From a virus, in IMG/VR virus record IMGVR_UViG_3300029177_000001, positions 26,630-90,629 of that record: a stretch of 64,000 nt of DNA; one strand, 5' to 3'. Shown here in pieces: positions 2,894-7,883 of the stretch (positions are counted from its first letter, which is position 1; the number at the start of each line of letters is the position of its first letter). The notes beneath the pieces are model-generated. The model did no database searches. It saw nothing but the letters and a program-made list of their open reading frames with translations, and had not been told where the DNA came from. Position numbers and translations under genes: made by a program.

Positions 2894-3055
2894 ATGGATA
2901 AAACATTTTGGAACATAATGTCAGTAGGTGGATTAATTACATCGTGTTTAGCCGGCGCTAGATTATATGAAATTGGAGAAGAAGCATTTTTCTATGGATT
3001 TGTATTGGGTATCGGAGCATTGATGTTCGCTGCAAAATATATGGGAGATGAATAG
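2894..3055 (+). CDS. small membrane protein (53 aa)
   Basis: Not in ORF track (<60 aa). ATG 2894 preceded by ggaggtg. Translation MDKTFWNIMSVGGLITSCLAGARLYEIGEEAFFYGFVLGIGALMFAAKYMGDE has two hydrophobic segments. Confidence 0.45.
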   Translation: MDKTFWNIMSVGGLITSCLAGARLYEIGEEAFFYGFVLGIGALMFAAKYMGDE

Positions 3056-3159
3056 GAAAGAAAATGACAGTGGAAGAAATGCGACAGAAGATTGAAGAGC
3101 CGACAGGAGCAGAGATCGAGATTGTATAAATGTAATAATTAAAAAAGGAGAAATAAATT

Positions 3160-3924
3160 ATGTGTGAATTTAAAAGTGGAATTATTTTTAAGAATAGGGT
3201 GGAACTTGCGCCATTAGGGAATGAAAGTCATTCAAGTTTACTTGAAAACTTGGATGTAGAAGATAATGAATTTAATGCTTCTAAGAAATTTGTGAGAGCA
3301 GAATTAATTCCGCCAGAGAGATATGTTATCACTTCTGATATTTCAAAGTGGACTTATAAAGTCGATCAGGATATTGTGCCAGAATGGTATAGTAACGATC
3401 CAGAGAGATATGAAGAGGAATTTAAAGAATCTGTTAAGAATTTTATGGATAAAAATTTTACAGATGAATTTGGATATTATTGGACAAACATTCGAATGGA
3501 TGGAAAGATATATCATTTTATGTATGGAGTTCTTACGAAGATGAGTTTTGGTAGCAATAATAATTACGCAGAATCTTCTGTAAGAAAATATCTTAAAGAG
3601 CACAAACTTGCAAAAGACATTAAAGATAAATATGGGAATAGTATTGTTCCGTTTGAAAATAACTTGCTTAGTATGGATGGATTTAATGATTATGGCGTTG
3701 TAAAAGACGATGTATTATCTATTCCGACATTTTATTTATTCAGAAAATGTGGTGAAAAACTTCCATTAATCAATTATGCATACTGGCAGTCAACTCCAAA
3801 CCAGACACCGTCAAGAAAAGATTCTTCCTATGTTCAGGTTGTCTACAGTGGTGGGAACATGGGTTACGACGATTGCTGCTGGCTTGATCATGGGGTTCGT
3901 CCGTTTTTTATCACCGAATCTTAA
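3160..3924 (+). CDS. DGR variable (target) protein, C-terminal C-type-lectin/DUF1566-like fold
   Basis: C-terminus 'YWQSTPN...SYVQVVYSGGNMGYDDCCWLDHGVRPFFITES' contains the VR. The '...W..HGVRP' ending is typical of CLec-fold DGR targets. RBS aaaggag upstream of ATG 3160. Confidence 0.9.
   Translation: MCEFKSGIIFKNRVELAPLGNESHSSLLENLDVEDNEFNASKKFVRAELIPPERYVITSDISKWTYKVDQDIVPEWYSNDPERYEEEFKESVKNFMDKNFTDEFGYYWTNIRMDGKIYHFMYGVLTKMSFGSNNNYAESSVRKYLKEHKLAKDIKDKYGNSIVPFENNLLSMDGFNDYGVVKDDVLSIPTFYLFRKCGEKLPLINYAYWQSTPNQTPSRKDSSYVQVVYSGGNMGYDDCCWLDHGVRPFFITES
3826..3905 (+). repeat. DGR variable region (VR)
   Basis: 80-nt alignment to 4411..4490 at constant offset 585. 13 mismatches, every one at an A in TR. 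All 55 non-A positions identical. Confidence 0.93.
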
Positions 3925-3953
3925 ATCTGTTTATCTTGTCGATAACATTTTGT

Positions 3954-3998
3954 GGAGACGAAGACAGAACAATGCGCAAGCGTTGTTCGTAAGTCTCC
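3954..3998 (+). promoter_or_regulatory. stem-loop downstream of VR with GCAA (GNRA) tetraloop
   Basis: Inner hairpin 3967..3988 'gaacaatgc-GCAA-gcgttgttc' (9 bp including one G-U). Outer pairing ggagac(3954-3959)/gtctcc(3993-3998). Lies 49 nt 3' of the VR end. Confidence 0.7.
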
Positions 3999-4027
3999 GA
4001 AGAACTAAATGCAAGATTGGGGGTCAT

Positions 4028-4381
4028 GTGGAAGTTATTACAAAAGCTATTGATTTGATGCAGTATACATATTCTGTAACTTCAAATAAAAAGAGATATC
4101 CTGCGAAATATAGAATGCTTATAGAACGAATCCAGAATGAGTGTATGAATATATATGATTTCTTAATGAGCGCAAATAGAGTACAACTGAATATTGATAG
4201 ACAAGAAAGATTGGAATTGCAAACAAAATCGATTTCGTCATGTGACAAATTGTCCTGCTATGTTGAATTATCAATGAATATTAACCTTATAGGATCAGAT
4301 ACAGTTGAATATTGGCAGAAAAAGATATGCGATGTTAAGTACATGACAATAGCATGGAGAAGCAAAGATAAAACAAGATAA
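4028..4381 (+). CDS. avd: DGR accessory variability determinant (Avd)
   Basis: C-terminal 117 aa of ORF 3776..4381 ('VEVITKAIDLMQYTYSVTSNKKRYPAKYRMLIERIQNECMNIYDFLMSANR...'). Helical, basic, Avd-like size, and located between target and TR. Start uncertain: GTG 4028 after ggggg, or ATG 4058. Confidence 0.7.
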   Translation: MEVITKAIDLMQYTYSVTSNKKRYPAKYRMLIERIQNECMNIYDFLMSANRVQLNIDRQERLELQTKSISSCDKLSCYVELSMNINLIGSDTVEYWQKKICDVKYMTIAWRSKDKTR

Positions 4382-4410
4382 AATTTTTTTTGGTTGTTTG
4401 CTATATGACT

Positions 4411-4490
4411 TCCTATGTTCAGATTGTCAACAGTAATGGGAACATGAATTACAACGATTGCAACTGGAATAATCATGGAGTTCGTCCGTT
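4411..4490 (+). repeat. DGR template region (TR)
   Basis: Invariant copy of VR. Rich in AAC/AAT codons in the target reading frame (SYVQIVNSNGNMNYNDCNWNNHGVRP). Confidence 0.93.
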
Positions 4491-4609
4491 CTGGATCGGA
4501 AGACGAAATAGAGTAAGAGAAACACTGAAATTAGAGTCCCGATATCAAAAGAGCAAACAACCTTTCCTGTCTAATCAAAGACAGGATAAATACAAAGGTA
4601 GAATATATC
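4411..4609 (+). ncRNA. DGR template RNA (TR plus spacer region preceding RT)
   Basis: Non-coding 119-nt spacer between TR and the RT start contains hairpin cctgtct(4566-4572)/agacagg(4579-4585). ORF-track ORF 4390..4623 is just a translation of this RNA. Confidence 0.7.
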
Positions 4610-5647
4610 ATGATAAAAGGTAAAACAGATTTTGAAAAGGTATCGGATTTTGAAAATTTATATAAAGCGTATTTGGATTCAAAAGGTGGAAGAGGATTCA
4701 CAAAAAGCAGAATTAAATTTGAAATATCTGCCCTTGATGGGGTGTACCAGATTAAAAGACTTTTAGAAACAAAGAGATATGAAGTAGATAGATATAACAG
4801 ATTCAAAGTATATGAACCAAAAGAGAGAATTATAGAAGCAGGAAGTTTTAAAGACAAGATTGTGCAGCACAGTTTGTGTGACAATGTACTTCTTCCTATT
4901 TTAAGTAAGGAGTTTATATACACGAATTATGCTGGACAAGTAGGTAAAGGGACATTGTTTGGCTTAGACTGTTTGAAATATCAGATGTATTTAGCATATC
5001 AAAAATATGGATATGATTGCTGGATTATCAAAGGAGATATCAAAAAATTTTTTTATAATATTGAGCATGATGTTTTGAAAGATATTGTTTCTTACTTTAT
5101 ATCAGATTCAGATACATATTGGCTGTGCGAGAAATTCATTGATAGCACAAGTGAAAAAGGTCTACCGCTTGGAAATCAAGTTAGTCAGGTATTTGCTTTG
5201 TTATATCTCTCTGGTTTTGATCATTTTATAACCGGAGAATTAGGAATTAAATATTACGGGAGATACATGGATGATTTTTACTTAATTGTAGAATCAAAAG
5301 ATTATGCAAAATTCTGTTTACATGCTGCTGAAGAGTTTACTAAAACATTAGATATTGATCTGAATGAAAAAACTCAGATTATTCCTTTTAAAAATGGAAT
5401 TAAATTTTGTGGTTTTCACACCTATGTTACAAAAGATGGAAAAGTGATAAGAAAACTTGCAAATGAAAAGAAGAGAAAAGCAAAAAAGAAATATCGAAAA
5501 ATGGCAAAGATGTTAAGAGAGAATAAGTTATCAAAAGAAAAATTCCTAGAATCTTATGAATCTTGGAAGAATCATATTTCACATGGAAATTGTGTGAAAT
5601 TCACGTATGAGATGGACAAAATGGTGAATGAAATACTGTTTGGTTGA
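4610..5647 (+). CDS. DGR reverse transcriptase
   Basis: Motifs 'LPLGNQVSQVFALLYL' ([LIV]GxxxSQ, DGR hallmark), 'GRYMDDFYLIV' (YMDD) and 'IKFCGFH'. About 345 aa, typical DGR RT size. Confidence 0.93.
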   Translation: MIKGKTDFEKVSDFENLYKAYLDSKGGRGFTKSRIKFEISALDGVYQIKRLLETKRYEVDRYNRFKVYEPKERIIEAGSFKDKIVQHSLCDNVLLPILSKEFIYTNYAGQVGKGTLFGLDCLKYQMYLAYQKYGYDCWIIKGDIKKFFYNIEHDVLKDIVSYFISDSDTYWLCEKFIDSTSEKGLPLGNQVSQVFALLYLSGFDHFITGELGIKYYGRYMDDFYLIVESKDYAKFCLHAAEEFTKTLDIDLNEKTQIIPFKNGIKFCGFHTYVTKDGKVIRKLANEKKRKAKKKYRKMAKMLRENKLSKEKFLESYESWKNHISHGNCVKFTYEMDKMVNEILFG

Positions 5648-5796
5648 AATGTCGATTTCATCTGAAAATAAACACAATATATAGTGGTTCTGGTTAGGTA
5701 CAAATACTACATATTGTATGTATAATTCCTGAGATGGAAGTCATATACGGACAGTCATTGCAAGAAATGAATTGCAATGCGACAACTGTCACTTCG

Positions 5797-5901
5797 TCAA
5801 TTATCTCTTAGGATAATGGCGATAATGCTCATGGACGAATTCCCACTTCTGGAGCCGGAACCGCCAATAAGCATCGACATGAACCATATTATATTCAGCA
5901 T
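5797..5901 (-). CDS. candidate minus-strand mini-ORF (34 aa, hydrophobic)
   Basis: Minus-strand aggag (plus 5910-5914) lies 8 nt before ATG (5901). Peptide MLNIIWFMSMLIGGSGSRSGNSSMSIIAIILRDN. Lies in a 390-nt gap with no credible + ORF. Confidence 0.3.
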   Translation of the reverse strand: MLNIIWFMSMLIGGSGSRSGNSSMSIIAIILRDN

Positions 5902-6038
5902 AAAATCATCTCCTGGTTTCATGCAGACGAAAATATATCGCATGAATTTATCTGGATGATTTCTTGTATGTGGTGGTTGTCATAAAACAGTATATAACAA
6001 AATTTGAATGAAAGCAAATAGAAAAGGAGAATAAAACT

Positions 6039-6410
6039 ATGACAGTATATGATTTAGTAGCAATTGTGAATTTACTAGAAGACAAAAAACAAAAAGATTA
6101 TGGGTTTGCTTTATACAAGGAAGAATATGAATTACTTAGAACAGCAAGCTTAGAAAATACACTTGTAGTTGTTAATGCAAGAGGAAAAGATAGGAGAGTA
6201 TTAGGAAAAGTAAAAGTGATTTTACCTGCGAGTGTATATGGTAAATATCCTACAGCTCAGGTAGTTGGCGTTGTTAATATGGAGGCATATTCAAAACGTA
6301 AAGAGGAAGAAGAACGTATTGATAGAATCAAAGAAATAAATCGTTTAATTAATAAGAACAATAGAGAGTTAGTGAATTTAATGACAGAACTAAGAAAATT
6401 AGAAGGGTAA
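6039..6410 (+). CDS. hypothetical protein (C-terminal coiled coil)
   Basis: aaaaggag RBS before ATG 6039. No domain recognised. Confidence 0.6.
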   Translation: MTVYDLVAIVNLLEDKKQKDYGFALYKEEYELLRTASLENTLVVVNARGKDRRVLGKVKVILPASVYGKYPTAQVVGVVNMEAYSKRKEEEERIDRIKEINRLINKNNRELVNLMTELRKLEG

Positions 6411-6427
6411 AAGGAGAAATAAATAAT

Positions 6428-6610
6428 ATGAAATATCCATTCCAGTGCTCTAAATGTGGACACAAAGAAATTATTACAATGTCAATGAAAGAATACGTAG
6501 GAGAAGGGCATATGTGTCCTGAATGCGGAGAAGAAATGCAACGAGAAATTGACTCGATGGTCTGTAGAAGTATTGATAAAACAGGAGACTTTTACAGAAG
6601 CTTCAATTAA
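6428..6610 (+). CDS. zinc-ribbon protein (FmdB-like CxxC...CxxC)
   Basis: 'FQCSKCGH...HMCPECGEEM' has two CxxC pairs. aaggag RBS. Confidence 0.6.
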   Translation: MKYPFQCSKCGHKEIITMSMKEYVGEGHMCPECGEEMQREIDSMVCRSIDKTGDFYRSFN

Positions 6611-6624
6611 CGATTTATAAAAGT

Positions 6625-6695
6625 TGTGGATTAGTGTAACTGGTAGCACGATGCAGCGTGGCACATAAGTAAAGGTTCGATTCCTTTATCTACAA
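6625..6695 (+). tRNA. tRNA-like element with aberrant anticodon arm (possible pseudo-tRNA)
   Basis: Hand fold: 7-bp acceptor tgtggat/atctaca, U8, D arm gtgt-aactggta-gcac with GG, and perfect T arm aaagg-TTCGATT-ccttt. The 20 nt between position 26 and the T arm give no 5-bp stem with a 7-nt loop. No encoded CCA. Confidence 0.4.
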
Positions 6696-6696
6696 T

Positions 6697-6774
6697 TCAT
6701 ATGCAGAACAATTTCCTATACATGTTTCATGACTCCAATAAAATAAGATACATAAAGTTCTGCATATGATTTTT
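6697..6774 (+). terminator. long hairpin followed by T-run
   Basis: 13-bp perfect inverted repeat tcatatgcagaac (6697-6709) / gttctgcatatga (6757-6769), 47-nt loop, then ttttt (6770-6774). Confidence 0.45.
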
Positions 6775-6942
6775 CATTGGTGTTTATAATCAAATATCAC
6801 CTAAAGTAAATCAAATATTTAGAAACTGTAAACGTTGATTCAACAAACTATTTCATTTGTCGCTATTTGAAAATGTTTGTGAGCTGCATGTGATATAAGA
6901 TTGTAAATACCGATGTGATTAATATTAAAAGAGGTAAGTCAA

Positions 6943-7485
6943 ATGAGCAGTTGGACATATGTACATGGAACAATTGTTGTTTCTCCTCTAGGTAGGACAC
7001 AACATGAAAAGAGATATATTCTTGAAACCGCACTCGATCATCTTCCTGTCGTAACAGGGTCAGAAAGAGATATGGAAGTATATGTGATTCAAAAAAGAGG
7101 ACATAATTGTTCAAGTTTTTCTGACGAATTTCTTGAGAGAACAAATAATTTGAGAGATAGATATGGAGACAGAAATCGGAAACGAGGGTTCTTACGAACG
7201 CAAGACGAATATATTCTCGTTGTTGATGGATCACTACGTGATAGAGAGTTTAAAGATACATTTCAAGAATTTATGAAATGGATTTGTAGATTGTCAAAAC
7301 GAGTTATTGTATACGATGTAAATGTAAAAATTTGGGGATTTGATAAGCAATATTTTATCAATAATCCAGATCAGTTTTCTGATATGTATGAGTACAAAGA
7401 TAATTGGTGTAATTACTTAATGTGGGAATATGATAGAAATGAAGAAGGAAGTTTATTAAGTGGAAAGCCAGGGAAGAAAAGATGA
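6943..7485 (+). CDS. hypothetical protein (paralog of 25258..25647)
   Basis: aagaggtaag RBS. Shares 'MS.WT.V', 'LP..GSE..E' and 'G.LR....F.E..KW' with ORF 25258. Confidence 0.6.
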   Translation: MSSWTYVHGTIVVSPLGRTQHEKRYILETALDHLPVVTGSERDMEVYVIQKRGHNCSSFSDEFLERTNNLRDRYGDRNRKRGFLRTQDEYILVVDGSLRDREFKDTFQEFMKWICRLSKRVIVYDVNVKIWGFDKQYFINNPDQFSDMYEYKDNWCNYLMWEYDRNEEGSLLSGKPGKKR

Positions 7486-7883
7486 GAAAACCTAAAGTAG
7501 AAAATAAATACAACTTAACAATGAAGAAAATCCAAAAACTCAAAATTGGTGATGAGTACAAAATTAAGAAACCTTTATTTTGGAGAAATAATATTATTAA
7601 TGCATGGTGTATTAATGGAACTGTTGGAACGTATCAGGATATAAAGTACTGTACATATAATGAATTTTGGATAGGGATATATGATAAACCATATTGCAAT
7701 AGTAGAATTCGTGCTTATTGTAATTGTTGGGGAGGAATGGGTACTTATAAATTTGACAAGTTTTTTAGACCTGAAGATATTGAGTGTGAAAATGATTTAA
7801 AAGTACAGGAAGAGTTGTTAAAAACAATAAATAATTTGATTGATGAAGGGATTTTGGTGATGGAAGATGGACGGAACAGTTAA
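7482..7883 (+). CDS. hypothetical protein
   Basis: ATGA overlap with upstream ORF. No domain recognised. Confidence 0.55.
   Translation: MRKPKVENKYNLTMKKIQKLKIGDEYKIKKPLFWRNNIINAWCINGTVGTYQDIKYCTYNEFWIGIYDKPYCNSRIRAYCNCWGGMGTYKFDKFFRPEDIECENDLKVQEELLKTINNLIDEGILVMEDGRNS

Follow-up and report, generated by a model that had tools for sequence, protein, structure and literature searches.

What is encoded, if anything, between the reverse transcriptase (RT) gene of a phage diversity-generating retroelement (DGR) and the next phage gene, and does it have anything to do with the retroelement? The question is raised by positions 5648 to 6038 of a 64,000-nt stretch of viral DNA (IMG/VR record IMGVR_UViG_3300029177_000001, positions 26,630 to 90,629), hereafter called the window and numbered from its first letter. 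The gap was delimited correctly in the original prediction, which was made from the letters of the window alone: the RT stop codon is located at 5645-5647 and the next plus-strand ATG at 6039. The same prediction labeled the gap non-coding, which is wrong, as a minus-strand small gene with a conserved reading frame (frame A) lies inside it. Phage morons are self-contained promoter-gene-terminator inserts with deviant composition. The gap is probably a moron-like cassette with a small gene on the minus strand, belonging to an uncharacterised mobile family and carried here in a frameshifted form.

Two overlapping reading frames have to be distinguished:

5801-5887, minus strand: conserved frame A, MVHVDAYWRFRLQKWEFVHEHYRHYPKR followed by a stop codon (translation, phrog_21154 match and codon statistics).
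5797-5901, minus strand: frame B, the earlier open reading frame (ORF) of 34 amino acids (aa), with an ATG at 5901 coupled to a Shine-Dalgarno (SD) sequence; opened by a 1-nt deletion.

Comparison with related loci demonstrated that the gap carries a predicted protein-coding frame, i.e., frame A, which is a member of the phrog_21154 family. This assignment is based on an excess of synonymous over non-synonymous differences, on SD-preceded homologous ORFs, on a profile match, and on the use of synonymous codons at invariant residues. The gap was aligned with locus L017, after which a pattern search gave three diverged versions of the element; the matches of the first DNA pattern in the high-GC loci L082, L085, and L087 were due to chance. 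Behind GGAGGTGA, L084 and L017 each have a 33-aa ORF on the minus strand (MNKHDMVHVNAYWRFRLHKWEFVNEHFRHYPNR in L084 and MGNVPMAHVRAYWRFRCYQWEFVHEHLRHYPTR in L017), and the nucleotide differences between these two ORFs are mostly synonymous. With the back-translated pattern WRFRxxxWEFV, 35 viral loci with homologous, SD-preceded ORFs of 33-38 aa were found. The proportion of synonymous differences (pS) in frame A is 0.76, vs. a proportion of non-synonymous differences (pN) of 0.21, whereas frame B shows no synonymous excess (pS 0.27, pN 0.32). Third codon positions are the most variable ones, also when the codons of the search pattern are left out and in an independent proteobacterial set collected by tblastn. 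The invariant residues V, Y, R, R, E, V, H, and R are encoded by every synonymous codon, including switches between AGR and CGN. Finally, the frame A core matched the profile hidden Markov model of phrog_21154 at profile positions 21-46 of 47 (E 0.0079), with lower E values for the L084 allele (4.2e-5) and for the peptide of an Stx phage (5.2e-8).

The AGGAG at 5914-5910, the ATG at 5901, and the 34-aa translation that were reported earlier on the minus strand are all there. Nevertheless, frame B had to be rejected as the conserved product: it contains stop codons in L098, L117, L128, L109, and other relatives and bears no signal of purifying selection. A plus-strand ORF of 60 aa (5777-5959) is interrupted by a stop codon in L084 and L088, as read from the alignment, and was discarded as well. 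The original prediction had suggested weighing covariation against codon-pattern conservation; both were found, as covarying helices discussed below and as codon-level selection, but the latter in frame A.

The frame A-type peptide is hydrophilic, with a mean hydrophobicity of -0.27, a net charge of +3, and no hydrophobic stretch or transmembrane segment. Its segment VHVRAYWRFRL has the periodicity of a β-strand. AlphaFold2 modeled the 34-aa stretch as a lone helix with low confidence (predicted local distance difference test score 73). Sequence searches of Pfam, NCBIfam, PADLOC, and PDB with family peptides gave no match, and nothing was found in the literature by peptide strings or by the PHROG identifier.

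The window copy is most likely a decaying allele of the cassette, as judged by comparison with intact alleles. Such alleles were recovered by scanning metagenomes for the SD and start context. In six contigs (L150, L151, L152, L155, L158, and L160), MLNHNMVHVDAYWRFRLQKWEYVHEHYRHYPKR is encoded from the SD-coupled ATG, with the consensus MLNHNM(V/I)H(V/I)DAYWRFR(L/M)(Q/H)KWEYVHEHY(R/H)HYPKR. In the window, one C has been lost in codon 4, which changed AATCATAAT into AAT-ATAAT; the intact alleles have ATGCTGAATCATAATATGG where the window has ATGCTGAAT-ATAATATGG. The 34-aa hydrophobic ORF open from ATG 5901 is a by-product of this 1-nt deletion. By the same event, frame A lost its SD-coupled start, and its only remaining in-frame ATG (5887) is not preceded by an SD. 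The SD itself reads GGAGA in the window vs. GGAGG in intact alleles. The window type comprises, besides the window, L089, L090, L092, L147, and L153, and in a frameshifted sub-lineage (L149, L154, L156, and L159) an otherwise invariant Arg is replaced by Gln. In the L088 allele, the SD is mutated.

A property of the family that extends beyond the coding region is a predicted pairing between the 5' end of the transcript and a segment past the stop codon. The elements concerned are, together with a neighboring hairpin:

5970-5981, minus strand: 5' strand of the long-range helix, GACAACCACCAC, degenerate in the window.
5781-5792, minus strand: 3' strand of the long-range helix, GUGACAGUUGUC, beginning 9 nt past the frame A stop.
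5756-5779, either strand: inner hairpin with an 8-bp stem and a conserved 8-nt loop (GAAAUGAA on the plus strand, UUCAUUUC on the minus strand), supported by covariation.

Covariation showed that the predicted pairing of the 5' end with the post-stop segment is a feature of the family. When eight A-type members were aligned, the cells of the 12-pair helix proved to be paired in 87.5% of cases and compensatory changes were present in 7 of the 12 pairs, and none of 500 shuffles was as good. When the partner strand was slid along, pairing, counted for two helices together, dropped from 85.6% to 21-57%. In intact relatives, GACAACCG(C/U)CAC pairs with GUGGCGGUUGUC, and a 14-bp long-range helix is part of the minimum free energy (MFE) fold of L084. 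In the window, the 5' strand contains CCACC instead of CCG(C/U)C and the 3' strand GACAG instead of GGCGG; due to the three central mismatches, the helix is absent from the MFE fold.

In the family, the 3' strand begins 7-20 nt past the stop codon, and the distance from the predicted -10 hexamer to the start of the 5' strand is 2-10 nt in 10 of 14 members. In the B and C subfamilies and on plasmids of Acinetobacter, Escherichia coli, and Klebsiella, the helix is found at the same position with unrelated sequences. Examples are CACCGUCAG/CUGACGGUG in L093 and GGUCAUCGGC/GCCGAUGGCC in L094, both B-type, and helices of 12-15 bp followed by a U-tract in the C-type members L105, L107, and L122. On an Acinetobacter pittii plasmid, UGAGGAGCUG/UAGCUCCUCA is followed by CCUUUUUU, a 13-bp helix is present in Acinetobacter johnsonii, and a compensatory change from G-C to A-U distinguishes the helices of the Klebsiella plasmid pKP187 and an IncHI1 plasmid. 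In the versions from Stx phages, Xanthomonas, and α-proteobacteria, no long-range helix was found; those of Stx phages and Xanthomonas have ordinary terminators. RNAalifold missed the helix in the B and C subfamilies, where MAFFT had misaligned the leaders, and reported only a hairpin inside the ORF.

The composite hairpin described earlier is present, except that its first arm, gacagt, lies at 5750-5755 and not at 5749-5754; the other parts were placed correctly (cattgcaa at 5756-5763, ttgcaatg at 5772-5779, and actgtc at 5785-5790). The 42-mer that forms it occurs once in the window and in none of 100 shuffles. Its outer stem, gacagt/actgtc, is restricted to window-type alleles and results from the changes in the helix strands of the window, the 3' helix strand overlapping actgtc. 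The inner hairpin is conserved more widely. Its stem is wholly replaced in L017 with an identical loop, both-sided changes were found in 6 of the 8 pairs, and L160, L151, and L158 show a compensatory change from G-C to A-U. G-U pairs in L084 and L017 favor formation of this hairpin on the plus strand.

Taken as a whole, the gap is probably an autonomous, counter-oriented unit of ~320 nt, predicted to extend from ~5983 to 5662 on the minus strand, whilst every ORF of 150 aa or more in the 64-kb window is on the plus strand. Besides the frames and helices listed above, it contains the following elements:

6012-6017, minus strand: -35-like hexamer TTGCTT, read from the sequence, with a 17-nt spacer to TATACT.
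5989-5994, minus strand: -10 hexamer TATACT, overlapping the TGtTATATA box and conserved as TTGTTRTATACT in all A1-type relatives.
5955-5962, minus strand: leader segment AAAUCAUC directed against the ribosome-binding site (RBS), pairing with GAUGAUUU at 5903-5910 (MFE folds of the window transcript and of L084).
5918-5946, minus strand: leader hairpin UUCAUGC...GCAUGAA of 7 bp (fold).
5910-5914, minus strand: SD sequence AGGAG, weakened from the GGAGG of intact alleles.
5790-5750, minus strand: 3' hairpin (sequence and fold).
5727-5738, either strand: conserved 12-mer TCCTGAGATGGA (UCCAUCUCAGGA on the minus strand), a small UUCC/GGAA hairpin in folds.
5662-5716, minus strand: AU-rich terminator, an 11-bp hairpin (5716-5706 with 5685-5675) followed by UGUUUAUUUUC (MFE folds).

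Transcription is predicted from the -10 hexamer to start at ~5983-5981. Most family members have a sense promoter-like site in the corresponding position; that of L105 is a perfect TTGACA-17-TATAAT. The helix between leader and RBS shows a compensatory change (UCAUC/GAUGA in the window vs. UCAC/GUGA in L084). The leader hairpin is identical in all A1-type relatives and, therefore, provides no covariation information. Although its flanks have diverged, the 12-mer itself does not differ between the window type, L084, L088, and L017. At the 3' end, the terminator hairpin shows a compensatory difference between the window and L084, and the tract behind it runs from 5674 down to ~5664. It is assigned to the minus-strand unit since its G-U pairs in the window and L088 are possible only on that strand; it was not listed by the terminator scan because the tool requires three G-C pairs. 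The whole predicted minus-strand transcript folds with a z-score of -4.5, none of 100 shuffles being as stable, and the equivalent RNA of L084, with the long-range helix included, with a z-score of -8.6. The segment 5700-5960 also folds more stably than shuffles (z -2.4 on the plus and -2.9 on the minus strand).

Several earlier observations on this region were reproduced. The GC content is 0.41-0.43 at 5750-5900 vs. 0.27-0.33 in the flanks, ggagccggaaccgcc is found in the gap, and both the hairpin ttcatgc/gcatgaa (5918-5924/5940-5946) and the TGtTATATA box (5999-5991) are there. The GC skew in the gap is negative, opposite to that of the plus-strand genes. The gap also corresponds to the moron cassette transcribed against the phage genes that had been among the options considered, since its minus strand bears a small ORF equipped with an SD, a promoter-like site, and a terminator.

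The DGR next to the gap consists of a variable repeat (VR) at 3824-3912 within an ORF at 3160-3924, a template repeat (TR) at 4409-4497, and the RT gene at 4610-5647 (Pfam RVT_1); TR and VR are 82% identical and differ at TR adenines. The association of the gap with this system, as implied by the earlier proposal of a DGR-associated structured RNA, did not survive comparison with relatives. In five of these (L084, L088, L089, L090, and L092), the VR-bearing target gene (3057-3951 of the window) is joined directly to the equivalent of 5643 onward; the block 3952-5642, which comprises an accessory ORF, the TR, and the RT gene, is missing, whilst the cassette is kept. By this comparison of gene order, the cassette proved to be independent of the DGR. 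Other members of the family reside in contexts unrelated to that of the window. A repeat search found none linking 5648-6038 to TR or VR, and Rfam gave no match at the element at E values up to 10, either in a scan of window positions 3000-7500 or at the homologous loci on plasmids and in Stx phages. A blastn search of the gap against GenBank phages gave no match. The TR-RT module thus shows a presence/absence polymorphism in these relatives, with breakpoints near the stop codons of the target gene and the RT gene.

The slot between the RT gene and a conserved gene starting with 'MTGYDLVAIVNLLED...' (6039-6410) carries variable cargo among relatives collected through the RT: an ORF of 317 aa resembling radical-SAM proteins in L001 (5039-6119), a lipoprotein of 210 aa in L003 (5039-5785), and, in L017 (5039-5579), a membrane ORF of 59 aa and a gap-related stretch, followed by a nucleotidyltransferase of 342 aa. 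The cassette is, therefore, best regarded as probable cargo, which this phage lineage carries in a slot of variable content; the TR-RT module would have been inserted beside the cassette.

The small gene in the gap probably represents a mobile cassette family that, judging from its predicted products, encodes a basic, aromatic-rich protein of 28-40 aa and is spread over several phyla, where it is carried by phages, prophages, and plasmids. The core of the protein has the motif V-x-V-x-x-Y-x-R-x-R-x4-E-x-V-x-x-H-x-R-x-x-P. In most members, this core of ~25 aa ends near the stop codon; C-terminal extensions past the core are found in the homologues P0002, P0003, P0007, and P0008. Bacterial members retrieved with the WRFRxxxWEFV pattern are from Lachnospiraceae, Clostridiales, Muribaculaceae, Prevotella, Elusimicrobiales, and Rhizobiales. 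A tblastn search gave 143 plasmid records, with plasmids of Xanthomonas, Enterobacter, Klebsiella, Acinetobacter, and E. coli down to 4 kb in size; it also revealed members in Stx2 phages, where the gene lies between cI-orf22 and the terminator that precedes pL/N. A homologue of 32 aa, MKPKIVPVVRYTRFRFGRVEHVRKHMRSLPTR, is native to E. coli plasmids. The family has been largely overlooked by annotation: every name of a family protein in databases is 'hypothetical', 234 E. coli genomes have no PGAP annotation at the locus, and the annotation on most plasmids is likewise 'none'. A search of representative proteins yielded only eight small clusters and no larger domain proteins. A tblastn match to an AcrVA2 protein of a Citromicrobium phage (E = 2), internal to a protein of 270 aa, was treated as chance. 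The genes on either side of the small gene are on the opposite strand in each of the viral contexts that were examined.

Some individual family loci deserve mention. In L124, L129, and L131, from Muribaculaceae and Prevotella contigs, an in-frame stop codon directly follows WEFVR, after which HCRR codons continue the family motif, and the database protein P0005 reads through the TAG of an L093-type gene; these stops in Bacteroidota homologues may reflect stop-codon recoding. On the A. pittii plasmid pApiA45Pb (L140, 1853-3320), a compact cassette of ~175 nt from promoter to U-tract directly follows genes for a helix-turn-helix regulator and a 298-aa 'reverse transcriptase family protein', and it is convergent with a DUF3800 gene. 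This adjacency to an RT gene is independent of that in the window and probably a coincidence. In pKP187 (L142) and the E. coli IncHI1 plasmid (L145), the small gene is tail-to-tail with a gene for an AAA ATPase of 733-736 aa, with HEPN and VapBC genes nearby, and on a 4-kb E. coli plasmid (L141) it is located beside genes for an ATP-binding and a hypothetical protein. These three plasmid neighborhoods look like defense islands.

How do these cassettes compare with known systems? Within phrog_21154, which includes the unnamed 40-aa ORF H0092 of the Stx2 phage VT2-Sakai, the window copy shares size, core motif, and the C-terminal P-x-R-stop with the other members but, because of the frameshift, has no SD-coupled start. 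The Stx phage version is part of an immunity operon (cI-orf22-peptide-terminator) and is co-directional with its neighbors, in addition to lacking the long-range helix. The promoter-like site, terminator, higher GC content, opposite GC skew, and location in a slot for variable cargo are reminiscent of morons, but, unlike typical morons, the cassette is directed against all surrounding genes, is far smaller, and is also found on plasmids across phyla. Type I toxin mRNAs such as those of hok/Sok and AapA1/IsoA1 are similar in their tiny ORF, transcript length of 150-330 nt, predicted own promoter, structured leader, 5'-3' pairing, and occurrence on mobile elements, although in the window copy itself the 5'-3' helix is degraded. 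They differ in that the family peptide is hydrophilic and cationic, and that neither a dedicated antisense RNA gene nor family-wide SD occlusion was found. A further putative type I system with an erratic distribution is the plasmid-borne XCV2162/ptaRNA1 (Pfam Plasmid_toxin), whose protein XCV2162 has a predicted membrane domain (PMC5367252). Like this system, the family comprises a plasmid-borne small ORF that is common on Xanthomonas plasmids, with a distribution pointing to horizontal transfer. However, identity of the two could be excluded, as family peptides have no Pfam match and ptaRNA1 was not detected at the Xanthomonas or Acinetobacter loci.

The similarities to type I systems raise the question of whether the cassettes are addiction or abortive-infection modules. 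The small cationic peptide would then be toxic, its stable, end-paired mRNA would be silenced by antisense read-through from the phage or a convergent neighbor, and the toxin gene of the window would have been inactivated by the frameshift. We regard this as an option with a modest chance of being correct. In T1TAdb (PMC8594479), the key determinants of type I toxin mRNAs include an own promoter, a structured leader, and a 5'-3' long-distance interaction; all of these are predicted for the cassettes, with a terminator and a long leader, and in L084 and L017 the leader is predicted to pair with the RBS. Also the erratic cross-phylum distribution over prophages and small plasmids, the lack of a protein partner for the usually unannotated gene, and its frequent orientation convergent with or antisense to neighbors fit such a role. 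Toxin genes are often inactivated by frameshift, and inactivated alleles are indeed found, i.e., those of the window type and L088 with its mutated SD. What argues against a toxin is the hydrophilic nature of the peptide, only the non-conserved frame B peptide being hydrophobic, although a hydrophobic, membrane-inserting peptide is typical of but not universal among type I toxins. Furthermore, no antisense promoter-like site was found at a conserved position in 20 members. A perfect TATAAT at 5721-5726 on the plus strand, just upstream of the 12-mer and the hairpin, from which an RNA antisense to the small ORF could start, is limited to the window type and not conserved in L084, L088, and L017. 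RBS accessibility was not systematically below that in UTR-shuffled controls (shuffles of the untranslated regions); only L017 and L107 had lower values. The SD paired with the 3' UTR no better than expected by chance, the candidate motifs CCAUCUC and UCAUUUC being equalled by shuffles, and there was no match to Plasmid_toxin or ptaRNA1. Thus, of the type-I-like character suggested in the original prediction, the 5'-3' long-range helix and the anti-RBS leader helix can be added in its favor, whereas the conserved peptide is not hydrophobic, and neither an antisense promoter at a conserved position nor a systematic occlusion of the SD was found. Two further proposals, that the small ORF is regulatory or that it is incidental, fare worse. 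As a leader or arrest peptide, it would control termination of the minus-strand transcript or its read-through into the convergent neighbor, here antisense to the RT gene. The end of the core near the stop codon, the 3' helix strand lying 7-20 nt beyond it and thus within reach of a terminating ribosome, and the U-tract straight after the helix in C-type members and A. pittii would suit such a device. It is, nevertheless, very improbable, considering that nearly all contexts have no same-strand gene downstream, that several homologues have C-terminal extensions, and that the Stx phage and Xanthomonas versions rely on ordinary terminators without the helix. Least probable of all, to the point of being hardly tenable, is that the ORFs are incidental and the region functions as a structured non-coding RNA, be it linked to the DGR or a riboregulator. 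The significant stability relative to shuffles, the two covarying helices, and the conserved hairpin loop and 12-mer would be explained, but not the strong codon-level purifying selection in frame A, the match of the peptide to a protein family profile, the empty Rfam search, or the persistence of the cassette without TR or RT and without any repeat relation to TR or VR.

Several observations weigh against a moron-like cassette in decay. In the window, no damage is seen in the frame A core, its stop codon, the promoter, or the terminator, and at least 10 contigs contain the frameshifted allele; hence, the allele may still work from ATG 5887 or via the frame B peptide. The replacement of Arg by Gln, as a sign of relaxed selection, is thin evidence, since it is a single change. 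The TTGCTT/TATACT pair matches the consensus at 8 of 12 positions and is absent from the list of the promoter scan, and the stability of the mRNA by end-pairing and lysogen-specific expression are only what we infer. A window allele that is still functional, be it through a 28-aa core from ATG 5887 or through the 34-aa hydrophobic peptide as a new membrane toxin, is in our view improbable, even though the SD-coupled ATG 5901 with its 8-nt spacing opens an uninterrupted hydrophobic frame of 34 codons. ATG 5887 has no SD nearby and no alternative in-frame start exists, and frame B is neither conserved in the family nor under purifying selection. Moreover, the only variation among frameshifted alleles changes an amino acid in either frame (R to Q in A, G to S in B), and the frameshift is accompanied by degradation of both the SD and the long-range helix.

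The moron-like cassette would, therefore, be organized on the minus strand in the order promoter, structured leader, SD, small ORF, 3' hairpin, and AU-rich terminator. The mRNA with its paired ends may be long-lived, and in some subfamilies the partner segment of the helix adjoins the terminal U-tract. Intact copies might yield a small, trans-acting accessory protein of the moron type while the plus-strand operon of the phage is silent, as plus-strand read-through RNA would be fully antisense to the cassette. Use of the promoter, stabilization of the mRNA by end-pairing, expression when plus-strand transcription is off, and any toxin-like role are what we infer. One could go further and speculate that phrog_21154 cassettes are unrecognised, RNA-gated selfish modules that cross phyla, in which a hydrophilic mini-protein rich in Arg and aromatic residues is produced from an end-paired mRNA and kept in check by antisense read-through from the carrier instead of by an antitoxin gene, the window containing a frameshift-inactivated copy. 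This extension is tentative, and we would rather bet against it.

Two side observations concern the surroundings of the cassette and the DGR. Rfam calls a tRNA at 6625-6695 on the plus strand (46.9 bits, E 5e-8), whereas the whole window is devoid of tRNAs according to ARAGORN. With 3 bp in its stem and 10 nt in its loop, the anticodon arm seems to be defective; the stretch is 93% conserved in L084. An ORF of 487 aa at 1413-2876 on the plus strand has a weak match to GmrSD_N (DUF262-like; E 6e-6, under the Pfam cut-off), so that accessory or defense-type cargo may be present upstream of the DGR as well.

At the level of the window, the odd "non-coding" island would thus be ordinary unannotated cargo, i.e., a frameshifted accessory gene with no link to the DGR. 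At the level of the family, a tiny protein, mostly missed by annotation, is found in phages of gut Lachnospiraceae, in Stx phages, and on more than 140 plasmids. In all subfamilies examined except those of Stx phages, Xanthomonas, and α-proteobacteria, the predicted pairing of the mRNA ends is kept although the paired sequences differ fully. The family, therefore, appears to be a good candidate for work on small proteins of mobile elements or on toxin-like modules, and it could be tested in E. coli by using the plasmid homologues.

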